Shown one piece after another: positions 11,129-64,000 of a stretch of 64,000 nucleotides of DNA; position 1 is the first letter of the stretch; each line of letters begins with the position of its first letter. The notes under the pieces are model-generated. The model was not told the DNA's origin and ran no database searches. It saw nothing but the letters and a program-made list of their open reading frames with translations. The position numbers were made by a program, and so were the translations under genes. The DNA comes from Candidatus Liptonbacteria bacterium (lineage in GTDB: Bacteria > Patescibacteriota > Minisyncoccia > UBA6257 > 2-01-FULL-56-20): assembly GCA_016194445.1 (NCBI GenBank), contig JACQBP010000040.1:20402-84401 (forward strand). The letters run 5' to 3'.

Positions 11129-12136
11129 TTAAAAAGTTTTGAGATTTAGAGGGGTGATCGATGGCAATGAATACTGATGAGTTTTTAAATCAAACTCTTG
11201 ATAGCCAAGAGGGTTGCAAAGATTGACTAGCTTTCCCCAATCTTTTTCAGAAAGATTCTTAGCGAGTACGATATAGCCCCGGAGTAATGGGCTAGTGGAA
11301 CCAGCGGCGGAGGGAGGATACGCTGGAAATAAGATATGATAGTTGTCATTTAGGGTAGGCTCAATAAAGCTTAAATCATTTTTCAAAATTTTCTTCCCTT
11401 CGTAGTATATATCATATTCGAACCAGGGTTTCCCGGGAACCTCAAAATCGTCAATCATAATAACGGCTCGAGGAAGAGATTGGAGTTCATTTAACTCGTC
11501 AAGAATAGGCCAGTAATCGTACCAATGAGCATCGAGGAAGACTAGGGGAAAATTACCGAGGCAAGAAGTCTGGATAAGTTTATGAAGCGCTTTCGGAGAA
11601 GAATCCTTGAGTAAGACAATGTTTTTTGAAGAAAGGAAACGTCGCGCACTTTCTCGATAATATTCTCTTGAGAGTTCGATAGTGTAAATAGAAAGAGCTG
11701 GGAAGATTTTTGATAAGTAAAGAGTGGTGTCACCGAGAAAGGTGCCAGTTTCAACACAAGAAGTAAGAGGAAGGTTTTTGAAGACTTCAACTAAAGCCTG
11801 CCATTTTTTGTCGCCATGAAAAGGTTCGCCGTATTTTTTAAGCGAGGGGGGGGTAAGAAATCTGGCAGCGCGCGCCGGAAAATGTTTGGTTGCCCGACCA
11901 ATTTTGAAGATCAAAGGAGAATGGAAACGTAAAAACTTTTTAAGTGGAGCGGTTATTTTCATAAAACTAATAATATTCTCTAATCTTAGAAAAGGAAAGT
12001 CTTGAGAGGGGTGGTGAACGAAGAATGGATAAGAAGCGAAGGATTTTAGACTCGGTGGTTGATCATCGGCTTTCCTATCTGTTAATATGAAATGGGTGAT
12101 ATTTTTGAATTTGGTTTGAACTAATCCACCGAACAT
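11129..12136 (-). CDS. class I SAM methyltransferase, Methyltransf_24/CmcI-like (putative sugar O-methyltransferase)
   Basis: CVETGTFLGDTTLYL...IYTIELSREYYRESARRF and later MIDDFEVP; paralogous architecture to 38222..39022. Start uncertain: ATG at 12202 overlaps wzx, the internal ATG near 12136 does not. Confidence 0.45.
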   Translation of the reverse strand: MFGGLVQTKFKNITHFILTDRKADDQPPSLKSFASYPFFVHHPSQDFPFLRLENIISFMKITAPLKKFLRFHSPLIFKIGRATKHFPARAARFLTPPSLKKYGEPFHGDKKWQALVEVFKNLPLTSCVETGTFLGDTTLYLSKIFPALSIYTIELSREYYRESARRFLSSKNIVLLKDSSPKALHKLIQTSCLGNFPLVFLDAHWYDYWPILDELNELQSLPRAVIMIDDFEVPGKPWFEYDIYYEGKKILKNDLSFIEPTLNDNYHILFPAYPPSAAGSTSPLLRGYIVLAKNLSEKDWGKLVNLCNPLGYQEFDLKTHQYSLPSITPLNLKTF

Positions 12137-60749: not shown

Positions 60750-62276
60750 ATGCAAAAGAATTTAGCGAAAGTTTATTCGGCGGAACTCGAAGGAATCAAC
60801 GCGCGGTTGATTGAGGTGGAGGTTGACTTAAATGTCGGCCTTCATGCTTTTAATATCGTAGGGCTCGCGGATAAGGCCCTGAACGAAGCGAAGGAGAGAG
60901 TGAACTCGGCTTTAAAAAACGCCGGGGTGAAGCCGCCGAATCGAGAGAATCGAAAAATTACGATTAATTTGGCGCCGGCGGATGTGAAAAAAACCGGGTC
61001 GCAGTACGATTTGGCGATTGCGCTCGGATACCTCCTTTCGACCGGACAGATTAAAAACTTTGAAGCGAAAGATAAAATTTTTTTGGGCGAGTTGGCGTTA
61101 GACGGCCGGCTCCGGCCGATCGCGGGAGCTTTAAATATGGCGCAGTTGGCGAAAGAGGAAGATTTTCAATATCTTTTTTTGCCCGAAGAGAACGCGAATG
61201 AAGCGGCGGTGGTTCACGGAGTAAAGGTGATCCCAATTGATAATCTTCAAGACGCGATAGATTTTTTGGAGGAGCGAAAAGAGATTTCGCCAGCGGTTTT
61301 TAAGGTTCAACATACCAGATCAAGCGTGGTGCCAGATTTTTCCGAAATTAAGGGACAAGAGAACGCCAAGCGAGCGCTCACGATTGCCGCCGCGGGCGGG
61401 CACAATCTTCTGATGATCGGGCCGCCGGGGGTAGGAAAAAGTTTTTTGGCTCAAGCGACGGTGGGGATTTTGCCGGATTTAGGGCGAGAAGAAGCGATTG
61501 AGGTGACAAAAATTTACAGCGCCGCTGGACTAAATCCCGGAGGACTCATAATGTCTCGGCCTTTTCGAACACCGCACCAGACAGCATCATTAATCGCAGT
61601 GACGGGCGGAGGGACTTACCCCCGGCCAGGCGAGATTAGCTTAGCTCACCGAGGCGTGCTTTTTTTGGATGAAGTGCCGGAGTTTCAAAAAAATATTTTG
61701 GAGGCTCTGCGGCAACCGATGGAAGCGGGGGAGGTACACGTGGCCCGCGCTAAGGGCACGCTCGCGTTCCCGGCAAAATTTTCTTTGGTCGCCGCGATGA
61801 ACCCTTGCCCTTGCGGTTTTTACGGCGACGAGGAAAAAGAGTGCCGATGCACGGCTTACGAAGTCATTCGCTACCAGAAGAAACTTTCCGGGCCTATGCT
61901 AGACCGGATTGATCTTCAAATCAAAGTGCCGCGCGTGAAAATCGCGGAGCTTAGAGAGCGGAAAAATCTGAAGCCGGCGAGTCCAGAAATTAAAGCTCAA
62001 GTAGAGAGAGCTCGCTCGATTCAGGCGGCGCGGTTTAAAAATTCTAAGATTAGAACTAACGCCGAGATGAGTTCAAAACAAACCGAGGATTTGGTTAATT
62101 TGGAACCAGCGGCGGAAGATTTCTTAAAAACTTTTGACAAGACGCGGCTCTCGCCCCGAGGCTACTATCGCCTTATTAAAGTGGCTCGCACGATTGCGGA
62201 TTTAGAAGGAAAAGAAGGGGTTTCTGAAAATCATTTGGCGGAAGCGTTTAGTTATAGATTGAGGGAGGAGATGTAG
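60750..62276 (+). CDS. comM: YifB/ComM-family Mg-chelatase-like AAA ATPase
   Basis: N-terminal Lon-like domain (YSAELEGINARLIEVEVDL), Walker A GPPGVGKS, C-terminal Mg-chelatase domain; 508 aa. Confidence 0.7.
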   Translation: MQKNLAKVYSAELEGINARLIEVEVDLNVGLHAFNIVGLADKALNEAKERVNSALKNAGVKPPNRENRKITINLAPADVKKTGSQYDLAIALGYLLSTGQIKNFEAKDKIFLGELALDGRLRPIAGALNMAQLAKEEDFQYLFLPEENANEAAVVHGVKVIPIDNLQDAIDFLEERKEISPAVFKVQHTRSSVVPDFSEIKGQENAKRALTIAAAGGHNLLMIGPPGVGKSFLAQATVGILPDLGREEAIEVTKIYSAAGLNPGGLIMSRPFRTPHQTASLIAVTGGGTYPRPGEISLAHRGVLFLDEVPEFQKNILEALRQPMEAGEVHVARAKGTLAFPAKFSLVAAMNPCPCGFYGDEEKECRCTAYEVIRYQKKLSGPMLDRIDLQIKVPRVKIAELRERKNLKPASPEIKAQVERARSIQAARFKNSKIRTNAEMSSKQTEDLVNLEPAAEDFLKTFDKTRLSPRGYYRLIKVARTIADLEGKEGVSENHLAEAFSYRLREEM

Positions 62277-62372
62277 TGGTTTTATGAGCTTTAAGAGTCA
62301 TATAGCGCTATATGTGACTTGCGTGGAATATACTTGCCCTACTTGATATAATAAAGGTATTATCATTTACTA

Positions 62373-62543
62373 ATGAAAAAGTTGATTAAATTTTTACAAC
62401 CCAAAAAGATGGAGAAAAAGAGACTCCTCGTTTCGCCCATAGAGAGAGAAGAGTTGGAGAAGAAGGCGGTTGAAGGAGCAAAAAAAGCAGTAAAAGAATA
62501 CCGCCGAGTTTTTGAGCGTCTAGCAGAATATGATAGAACCTAG
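62373..62543 (+). CDS. small RHH/Phd-like putative antitoxin (56 aa; may start at Met13)
   Basis: Not in the ORF track (under 60 aa). KRLLVSPIEREELEKKAVEGAKKA has beta-strand + helix RHH character; overlaps the doc start by 14 nt. Confidence 0.3.
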   Translation: MKKLIKFLQPKKMEKKRLLVSPIEREELEKKAVEGAKKAVKEYRRVFERLAEYDRT

Positions 62544-62985
62544 CCATATTCACTATATTGATTTAGTGATGATGGAAAAAATGTGCCATCCAATCGCGGT
62601 GAATCTTTATGACTCAATGGCAGAACCTATGCCGAAATTCACCGATCACGAGGGAGCTTTGCTAGATTCAGCACTTAAAAATCCACAACAGAGTTACTAT
62701 CCGACTTTTACAAGAAAAGCGGCAGTTCTTTACTACGGGTTAATAAAGAATCATCCATTTAAAAATGGAAATAAGAGAACGGCAACCGCTTCGTTGCTTG
62801 TTTTCTTGTTTATTAATAACTTTTGGTTGGGAGTGCCTGACAACGAATTTGAGAGGGACATTGATGACTATCTAGTGAATCTTGCTCAAAAAGTCGCCAG
62901 ATCGGAGGGATCAAGCGGACGAGATAAATTTCTTGCAGAAATCGAAACTTGGTTATCAGAACATATTGTTGTTGCTAAAAAATAG
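62530..62985 (+). CDS. doc: Fic/Doc-family toxin (death-on-curing type)
   Basis: Fic motif HPFKNGNKRTA; 151 aa. Confidence 0.65.
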   Translation: MIEPSHIHYIDLVMMEKMCHPIAVNLYDSMAEPMPKFTDHEGALLDSALKNPQQSYYPTFTRKAAVLYYGLIKNHPFKNGNKRTATASLLVFLFINNFWLGVPDNEFERDIDDYLVNLAQKVARSEGSSGRDKFLAEIETWLSEHIVVAKK

Positions 62986-63016
62986 CCATGATTCTAAAAT
63001 TTTCGAATATGCCCCA

Positions 63017-63105
63017 GACGATTGCGGACATCGAAGGGAGTGCGGGGGGGTTCCGAAAATCATTTGGCGGAAGCGTTTAGTTATAGGTTAAGAGAGGAGG
63101 TGTAA
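63017..63105 (+). repeat. degenerate direct duplication of the last about 88 bp of comM (62189..62276)
   Basis: 63056-63089 matches 62228-62262 at 34/35 with a 1-nt deletion; flanking bases acgattgcgga...gaagg and ttagttatag.ttaagagaggagg.gta also conserved. The copy ends in a TAA-terminated remnant. Confidence 0.55.
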
Positions 63106-63143
63106 AAATTTGTATTTTGCAAGAATGGTAGTATAATAGAGAT

Positions 63144-63728
63144 ATGAATGTGAGTAAGATTAAAATTTTTAGGAAACTACTTGGGGTAATTTCGATAATT
63201 TCTCTGGTTATTTTTCTTACTTCACTTTTGCCTTTGTTGTCGGTAGGAGGTTGTAACACTAATTCCGAACTTAAGGATCTAAATAATCCTAGTAATATAA
63301 ATATATCAGTTACTCCGAATAAATGTATTGGTGGTTTTAAAGTAACGAACAACGGAGATGGTATAAGTTTAATTGCGATTAGAGGAAATATAGAAACTTT
63401 TGACGGTAAAAAACGCGGTTTTCTTTCAAATACTTTAGTGTGTGTGAGTTGGTTTGATAGGAGTAATTGGTCAGAAAAAATCGTTAGCCCAATAAATAGT
63501 ACTGAAACATGTGAGCCTTTTATTTTGGAGGCTGGAAAAGCATACCAATTTTACAGAGTAACAGGACCCTGGGAATTAACAACAAATAGAGGAACTGTAA
63601 CTGGAGTGTCAAAATCTTACAGTGCGCTTGGAAATTTTCACTTACTTTTCTTACTTAATTTATTCGTACTCATATTTTCCTATATTTTTTACACGATTCT
63701 TAAACGAAAAGCGAGAATGAAATCTTAG
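63144..63728 (+). CDS. hypothetical membrane-anchored protein (N- and C-terminal TM segments), AT-rich
   Basis: 194 aa; N-terminal TM, Cys/Gly/Asn-rich middle, C-terminal TM; lower GC than neighbours. Confidence 0.4.
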   Translation: MNVSKIKIFRKLLGVISIISLVIFLTSLLPLLSVGGCNTNSELKDLNNPSNINISVTPNKCIGGFKVTNNGDGISLIAIRGNIETFDGKKRGFLSNTLVCVSWFDRSNWSEKIVSPINSTETCEPFILEAGKAYQFYRVTGPWELTTNRGTVTGVSKSYSALGNFHLLFLLNLFVLIFSYIFYTILKRKARMKS

Positions 63729-63756
63729 GGCTACTAATACATTCTGCCAAAACCCT

Positions 63757-63783
63757 AAAAACCCCGCATAACGCGGGGTTTTT
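63757..63783. terminator. bidirectional rho-independent terminator (aaaaaccccgc ataa cgcggggttttt)
   Basis: Perfect 7-bp G/C stem with A-tract upstream and T-tract downstream, between convergent genes. Confidence 0.65.
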
Positions 63784-63812
63784 AGGGTTTTCTCTGACTT
63801 AGAATTCCCTTT

Positions 63813-64000
63813 TTAGATGTAACCAGAATCGCTCTCGCCGATCAGACCAGGACTGAGAGGCATAGCTTCGGGAGTGGAATTAAGGATCGGCTCGAAGTTG
63901 GGTTCGAGACTAGGAGTTTGGTCGGGCATCACTTCAGGCTCGGTGTTTTTTAATTTCTTTTCTGGATGACGGAAAAAGATGAGCCAAAGAATAAAGAGGA
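63813..64000 (-). CDS. 3' end of a minus-strand CDS running off the window (C-terminus ...PEAMPLSPGLIGESDSGYI*)
   Basis: Open minus-strand frame to the window end; stop is rc of 63813-63815; Pro/Glu-rich tail. Confidence 0.3.
   Translation of the reverse strand, partial: LFILWLIFFRHPEKKLKNTEPEVMPDQTPSLEPNFEPILNSTPEAMPLSPGLIGESDSGYI

Follow-up and report, generated by a model that had tools for sequence, protein, structure and literature searches.

The comM tail, its second copy and the Doc cassette between them

We analyzed a 64,000-nucleotide stretch of DNA (64 kb; hereafter the window) from a 94.6-kb contig of a metagenome-assembled genome of Candidatus Liptonbacteria, an uncultured groundwater bacterium of the Patescibacteria (Candidate Phyla Radiation, CPR), with attention to the 3' end of its comM gene, behind which lie a small cassette encoding a Doc-type toxin and a second, partial copy of the comM tail. 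The comM gene (yifB; 60750-62276, plus strand; MBI3589627) is intact and encodes 508 aa that match the Pfam families Mg_chelatase (2e-90), ChlI and Mg_chelatase_C up to residue 503, as well as TIGR00368 (6e-170) over positions 1-499 of 499. The gene order SBP_5, DksA-like gene, comM, a variable gap, uvrD and ksgA recurs across dozens of relatives within the Paceibacteria. Here the gap starts at 62277, extends ~3.5 kb downstream and contains the cassette, the comM tail remnant, an open reading frame (ORF) for a 194-aa membrane protein, a minus-strand gene with a Dockerin domain and a 58-aa ORF. An independent k=31 assembly of run SRR12113410 (Logan contigs L091 and L001; all contigs are referred to by such L numbers) was compared with the window, and the sequence past the window end was read from L001, which is 100% identical to the window.

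The last 87 nt of comM (62190-62276, plus strand), which encode the functional tail TIADLEGKEGVSENHLAEAFSYRLREEM and the stop codon, recur in slightly degenerate form after doc at 63018-63105 on the same strand, much as the sequence-only reading had described, with the coordinates shifted by one base. The proximal (attL-like) and distal (attR-like) copies are identical at 72 of 87 positions and differ by 15 substitutions and by one extra G that lengthens a G-run of the distal copy (~63041-63048). Within them lies a 32-nt block of perfect identity, GAAAATCATTTGGCGGAAGCGTTTAGTTATAG, at 62226-62257 and 63055-63086 (both plus strand), hereafter the core, which is the presumed crossover segment. 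The core sequence has these two matches in the window and none in 100 dinucleotide-preserving shuffles, even with three mismatches permitted, and the comM-tail repeat is unique of its kind in the window apart from coding motifs of paralogous genes. The match is not of low complexity and the relatives lack the same arrangement, contrary to what a coincidental low-complexity resemblance would entail. A third comM tail copy, which would be a sign of tandem islands, was found neither in the window nor in the next 6.4 kb. The distal copy ends in ..SENHLAEAFSYRLREEV followed by TAA, as had been noted for the remnant of the comM C-terminus, and it carries TIADIEGSAG in a different frame upstream of the extra G. 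Because of this extra G, the upstream part is out of frame with the comM C-terminus; the TAA-terminated C-terminus together with the frame change at the extra G indicates that the distal copy is a truncated, frameshifted comM end. A structured-DNA or attC-like reading of the repeat copies was rejected, folding being no better than that of shuffles (z = -0.9 and -1.5). No Rfam family came near its gathering score in 61500-64000, and no tRNA or tmRNA target was present in the window.

Over 13.9 kb on the upstream side and 0.94 kb on the downstream side, the k=31 assembly shows no difference from the window. Its break falls precisely at the core, L091 stopping at 62255 and L001 beginning at 63057, as expected where an exact 32-nt repeat has two different contexts on its left and two on its right. 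An assembly artefact was considered, in which the contig would thread a small molecule or a second strain through the shared 32-mer, the true state being an uninterrupted comM plus an 829-bp circle or strain variant. The sequence is metagenome-assembled, a k=31 graph cannot tell attL plus attR from attB plus attP, and no short cassette-bearing contig was retrieved from the Logan assembly, all of which an artefact would accommodate. On the other hand, the core is short, and assemblers with larger k and 150-nt reads should span it to unique flanks (an expectation from read length rather than from the reads themselves); the left part of the distal copy is a truncated, frameshifted tail joined to the 3' flank of doc and not a second intact comM; and both left and both right contexts are present in one sample. 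We consider an artefact highly improbable.

The DNA between the repeat copies (62277-63017, plus strand) measures 741 nt, in agreement with the earlier description of a 0.74-kb cassette bracketed by direct repeats, and its GC content is 37.8% compared to 44.2% for the window, placing it in the lowest 1.3% of 741-nt windows. It encodes a Doc (Fic-fold) toxin of 151 aa (62530-62985, plus strand; MBI3589629, annotated from an internal start) with an intact HPFKNGNKR motif, which scored above cut-off against both PF02661 (1.2e-11; 45.7 bits, cut-off 24) and TIGR01550 (9.4e-13; 48.4 bits, cut-off 38.65). Doc also matched PDB entry 9vzc, 'Death-on-curing family protein' (1e-4), in which HCFYNANKR aligned with HPFKNGNKR. 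A 56-aa ORF for a putative antitoxin (62373-62543, plus strand; MBI3589628) precedes doc and overlaps it by 14 nt. This 14-nt overlap and a partner of 53-59 aa recur in homologous cassettes on L082, L086, L092 and L100, and in L088 the partner has 60 aa and the overlap is 37 nt. The sequence thus supports a Doc toxin-antitoxin cassette, and the earlier claim of a Doc-type toxin with a small overlapping upstream gene was borne out. No further ORFs lie between the repeats, hence no integrase.

The label 'RHH' (ribbon-helix-helix) that had been attached to the upstream gene found no support. The 56-aa protein matched neither RHH, Phd, AbrB nor any other family in Pfam (E up to 10), NCBIfam (E up to 1) or PDB, and its AlphaFold2 (AF2) model, a single-sequence prediction made from no alignment, shows a disordered basic N-terminus and one long helix (residues 22-54), with no strand; an RHH antitoxin would have an N-terminal strand followed by two helices. 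The C-terminal helix (EELEKKAVEGAKKAVKEYRRVFERLAEYDR) is the sole conserved part among the partners of homologous Doc genes, the N-terminus not being conserved. Judging from the model, the putative antitoxin may be devoid of a folded DNA-binding domain.

Upstream of the two genes, a consensus scan placed a promoter-like region with an extended -10 element (TGATATAAT) at 62334-62363 (plus strand). A TGnTATAAT-like motif is kept upstream of the homologous cassettes in L088 and L100, and a plain TATAAT in L082. Between the comM stop and this promoter lies a perfect 16-nt palindrome, CATATAGCGCTATATG (62299-62314), with an imperfect extension AGTCA..TGACT. The ~50-nt stretch that holds it is locus-specific and is not shared with other copies of the cassette family; the palindrome could be an operator, a protein-binding site or a leftover recombinase-binding site.

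Divergence of the two tails and a proposed crossover

Both tails were aligned with those of 42 relatives. Ten of the 15 substitutions between the copies fall at third codon positions, and the substitutions coincide with sites that vary among the relatives' tails (permutation P = 0.02). Of the five changes right of the core, one is M/V, while the other four (AGA/AGG, TTG/TTA, AGG/AGA, TAG/TAA) are silent (P = 0.002 under neutrality). A run of at least 32 identical sites, given 15 substitutions over 87 sites, has P = 0.007 under uniform divergence, and coding conservation does not explain this run, because the best match to the core in any relative reaches 28 of 32 positions. The third-position bias, the match to variable sites, the silent changes and the clean core together point to allelic divergence and not decay, and the tails look like two comM alleles that diverged as working ends in different lineages, the distal one not being a decayed copy of the proximal one.

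These figures also bear on an in-situ origin, in which the comM tail would have been duplicated by a tandem duplication or a repair accident during an unrelated cassette insertion, with decay of the distal copy afterwards. The G-run frameshift and the heavily diverged left part of the distal copy are in keeping with such a history. Decay should, however, be even and blind to coding, yet the 32-nt block is unchanged (P = 0.007) and four of the five changes to its right are silent (P = 0.002); moreover, the distal right end fits the commonest ending of the relatives better than the functional copy does. An in-situ duplication is therefore very unlikely in our judgment.

Comparison with the relatives revealed a reciprocal pattern. 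In the left part, the proximal copy is nearer to the relatives than the distal copy in 37 of 42 and farther in 2 (against the closest relative, L002, the proximal copy matches at 31 of 36 positions and the distal copy at 25 of 36). In the right part it is the distal copy that is nearer in 31 relatives and farther in 9. The distal ending, ..REEV-stop, is the commonest one, with V in ~16 of the 32 closest relatives (L002-L033) and mostly I or another residue in the rest, while ..REEM-stop is found in the functional comM of this genome only, M occurring in none of the relatives. This chimeric, reciprocal similarity fits a single crossover in the core, which is suggestive and not proof.

Three relatives have aberrant comM ends of their own. 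In L011 (~11480-11578) and L031 (~11560-11665), ..ARTIADLE.. is swapped for a longer unrelated stretch before a conserved ..SAEHLAEAFSYRLKEEV-stop, and in L027 (~2533-2893) the comM reading frame extends ~360 nt beyond the usual stop. Indels or frameshifts may lie behind these ends, in the same hypervariable segment by which the present tail copies differ.

From the sequence, we lean, at somewhat better than an even chance, towards a single reciprocal crossover inside the 32-bp identity block, by which an 829-bp segment would have entered comM at its extreme 3' end. The crossover partners would have been the resident comM tail (attB-like) and a homeologous, non-identical tail (attP-like) on incoming DNA that was probably circular. 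In order, the insert would comprise the right end of a comM tail, the promoter, the gene for the small helical antitoxin, then doc and, last, the left part of such a tail. The proximal copy, as attL, would then be resident-left, core and incoming-right, giving the regenerated comM ending ..REEM-stop, and the distal copy, as attR, would be incoming-left, core and resident-right, that is, the original gene end displaced past the insert with its ending ..REEV-stop. The last ~19 nt of comM, right of the core, would stem from the insert, and comM would have been kept intact by the insert supplying its own copy of the gene's last ~30 codons. The predicted attB is proximal-left, core and distal-right followed by AAATTTGTATTTTGCAAG, within an ancestral uninterrupted comM ending in ..DLEGKEGVSENHLAEAFSYRLREEV-stop; the predicted attP is distal-left, core and proximal-right followed by TGGTTTTATGAGC.

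Because no recombinase is encoded in the insert, the unit would be non-autonomous. It may be a deletion remnant of a larger island, or else a mini-element moved by a trans-acting recombinase or by RecA using the 32-bp identity, which is about the length that RecA needs. The earlier view of the cassette as an insertion bracketed by a duplicated comM tail is supported, and the suggestion of a minimal remnant or an unusually small cargo of an integration event is still the best reading. Recombination between the direct repeats would excise the cassette. In characterized relatives Doc is a kinase that blocks EF-Tu; loss of the cassette would be followed by loss of the labile antitoxin and by the freeing of Doc, so that the module would be expected to stabilize its own retention. 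Such a penalty on loss may explain the persistence of so minimal a unit. The locus is best filed as an integrase-less integration remnant at a gene 3' end that resembles a cis-mobilizable element (CIME). The repeat, the chimeric similarity, the foreign composition of the insert, the intactness of comM and Doc and the absence of an integrase are seen in the sequence; the circular intermediate, the responsible enzyme and the addiction effect are deduced.

A different history could have led to two allelic tails, namely one-sided homologous recombination (homology-facilitated illegitimate recombination after DNA uptake) with DNA of a related strain in which the cassette already followed comM. Homology inside or upstream of comM would have served one end, the other end being joined illegitimately just upstream of the recipient's TIAD codons; the distal copy would then be wholly the native recipient tail (of the type ..DIEGSAGGSENHL..REEV-stop) and the proximal tail wholly that of the donor. 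Such a history agrees with the resemblance of the tails to functional alleles of different lineages and with the abrupt start of the distal copy ~25-30 nt past the doc stop. It needs no integrase, in line with its absence, and DNA uptake is plausible given that Patescibacteria carry competence genes, including comM. It expects, however, the opposite of the observed left-part similarity, in which the distal copy is far less relative-like than the proximal one (25/36 vs 31/36 to L002; 37 vs 2). The cassette lies beside comM in none of the 78 relatives whose comM surroundings we compared (those having downstream sequence), so there is no such donor among them, and sliding-window identity of comM against eight relatives, of low resolution at 75-80% nucleotide identity, shows no breakpoint step. 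The perfect 32-nt block and the reciprocal similarity would also go unexplained. We thus regard one-sided recombination as unlikely, though as an alternative to be reckoned with.

Relatives, other cassette copies and neighboring DNA

In none of the 78 relatives does the comM tail recur within 10 kb, and neither Doc nor its partner follows comM in any of them. An integrase was likewise absent from the comM-uvrD gap among the 92 ORFs surveyed (families listed being the 25 commonest of 80, with the 20 largest ORFs inspected individually). The integrase or longer island that the sequence-only reading had thought worth looking for in related genomes was therefore not found: the relatives carry neither a second tail, Doc nor a recombinase in this gap. 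Among the matches listed for the 92 ORFs are LysM/M23 peptidases, SLT_3, Trp_repressor-like and Dockerin/He_PIG proteins and housekeeping genes. The distance from comM to uvrD or ksgA is 3 nt at the least and 4.2 kb at the most; its usual occupant is an opposite-strand gene for a LysM/M23 peptidase or a lysozyme-like protein, and the comM-uvrD/ksgA junction is a variable spot across the Paceibacteria. Among the genes seen in this gap (L002-L069) are a pair of methyltransferase-like and TrmB genes (L008) and family-less plus-strand ORFs directly after comM in L007 (299 aa), L016 (309 aa) and L069 (273 aa).

Homologues of the Doc cassette (64-75% identity) were found in at least five other genomic contexts: between rpsJ and rplC (L082), beside a PIF1 helicase gene (L086), between M14 and VanY peptidase genes (L092), after obg (L100) and in L088. 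These contexts indicate that the cassette family is mobile. In L082 (5230-8746; also L083-L085), the antitoxin/Doc cassette lies together with an opposite-strand histidine-kinase gene between rpsJ (S10) and rplC (L3). In this other Patescibacteria genome the insertion thus interrupts the S10 ribosomal-protein operon, which is normally unbroken. Flanking repeats were absent around the homologous cassettes at seven other loci.

The search for a donor or an empty site gave little. In the search for the same strain without its insert, exact look-ups with comM, DksA, the antitoxin candidate and both lengths of Doc (151 and 138 aa) returned no contigs. A metagenome scan with a 26-mer of the core retrieved only comM genes of relatives (L089, L090) with different downstream DNA. 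Scans of viral contigs for the core, degenerate comM-tail patterns or relatives of Doc yielded nothing, and blastn against phage and plasmid sequences gave no match.

Several of these points weigh against an insertion by a crossover in the core. No cognate element with this att sequence and an integrase turned up in the viral, metagenome, phage and plasmid collections, and the precomputed Pfam hits of genes between -14 kb and +6.4 kb include no recombinase. Public relatives come no closer than 83-84% amino-acid identity in ComM, and because the relatives are at most 84% identical there and differ downstream, a precise empty site or exact attB is not reconstructable. Since flanking repeats are missing from the other cassette copies, duplication of the tail is a one-time, lineage-specific event and no demonstrated trait of the cassette itself. 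The comparison right of the core draws on five sites, and the relatives are not phylogenetically independent. Finally, a site-specific crossover cannot be distinguished from a RecA-mediated one by sequence alone.

A bolder version of the proposed insertion is that the 829-bp unit is a functional, integrase-free selfish mini-element, a Doc addiction module with a decoy host-gene 3' end as its sole integration machinery, which we consider improbable. Such an element would circulate among naturally competent CPR bacteria and insert through the short identity block by RecA (possibly ComM-assisted) or by a trans-acting recombinase, regenerating the target gene and then enforcing retention by post-segregational killing. 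If true, it would be the smallest CIME-like element described and would offer a route for the spread of toxin-antitoxin modules in reduced genomes that have no conventional mobile elements; unless the mini-element proves actively mobile, the locus holds no new mechanism. The feature is real and tidy but of an ordinary kind, and its interest comes from the CPR host and the unusually small insert. Mobile DNA and integration sites of the Patescibacteria are poorly documented, and their tiny genomes are usually called poor in classical mobile elements. The locus would give a clean case of gene-regenerating integration in a Liptonbacteria genome and marks the comM-uvrD junction as a variable spot, and the Doc toxin-antitoxin family appears to hop between unrelated chromosomal contexts in Patescibacteria, once into the S10 ribosomal-protein operon. 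For annotation, the pseudo-ORF after doc is explained, and two over-interpretations, the RHH label and the likeness to AbaR taken up below, are corrected.

Directly 3' of the distal comM tail lies the 194-aa ORF (63144-63728, plus strand), which has hydrophobic segments at its N- and C-terminus and its own promoter-like region. Its GC content of 32.5% falls in the lowest 0.2% of equal-sized windows, which suggests a second stretch of DNA, probably foreign, outside the repeats; it has no family match, and no homologue was found in any relative's comM-uvrD gap. A perfect 19-nt inverted repeat (AAAACCCTAAAAACCCCGC / GCGGGGTTTTTAGGGTTTT; 5-nt loop; 63749-63791) sits between this ORF and the convergent Dockerin-domain gene and looks like a bidirectional terminator. 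Farther upstream, a 38-nt motif occurs in nine copies, in separate minus-strand genes, at 7314-50303 (62-92% identity), and 48.3-54 kb holds genes for Epimerase/GDP_Man_Dehyd, RmlD_sub_bind, Wzy_C and methyltransferases. On these grounds, a large gene cluster for surface polysaccharides, rich in paralogous NAD-dependent epimerase/dehydratase genes, appears to fill most of the window.

Comparison with known systems

It is established for tyrosine-integrase islands that an island at a gene 3' end regenerates its target and that the displaced fragment marks the island end (PMC4383910). Such islands occur in tRNA and tmRNA genes, with SGI1 at trmE and ICESt1/3 at fda, following the 'Islander' principle (PMC4383910, PMC8409611). 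The present locus is like them in that the target gene is intact through a replacement 3' end, a direct repeat at the distal boundary is formed by the displaced original fragment, part of this repeat is perfectly identical, and the cargo is of atypical composition. It differs in having an insert of just 0.83 kb with neither integrase nor excisionase, an imperfect repeat as long as 87 nt, a host from the Patescibacteria and the comM 3' end as target, and in that a cognate autonomous element was not found. A tyrosine-integrase island of Acidithiobacillus ferrooxidans is listed with comM as its target (PMC10322971), so comM in this role is not unprecedented.

The sequence-only reading had pointed instead to the comM islands of Acinetobacter, an analogy that failed in position, mechanism and outcome. 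The insertion site of Tn6022/AbaR and Tsy is the Walker B region, inside the coding sequence of comM, which is thereby inactivated (PMC11014353, PMC10293859); Tn6022 makes a 5-bp target duplication, and Tn6022/Tsy encode TnsABC/TniQ/TnsF or YRec/TnsF (PMC11014353, PMC10293859). Only the name of the target gene is shared, whereas here comM is full length, the site lies in its last ~30 codons, the duplication is 87 nt long and transposition genes are absent. An integron gene cassette was also considered and rejected, as the repeats have no attC-like fold and are the tail of a coding gene.

With regard to its cargo, the cassette is like Phd/Doc type II modules (Doc of phage P1; TIGR01550) in its Fic-fold Doc with the motif HxFx(D/N)(A/G)NKR, its small overlapping gene and its own promoter; these modules are frequent cargo of mobile DNA with a stabilizing role, as the present cassette would be. 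It differs in its upstream protein, which by family search is not Phd/YefM, RHH or AbrB-like and is predicted to be a single helix with a basic tail. CIMEs are integrase-less elements that keep attL and attR (PMC6323972). Like them, the insert is flanked by att-like direct repeats, lacks genes for integration and transfer, and may plausibly have decayed from, or hitch-hiked on, a larger element. A CIME is, however, defined by a known integrative and conjugative element sharing its att site, and here no such partner was found, the att function is putative and the size is far below that typical of CIMEs. Though not placed in any named family of elements, the locus resembles, by analogy, a gene-3'-end island reduced to its att sites and a stabilizing toxin-antitoxin module.

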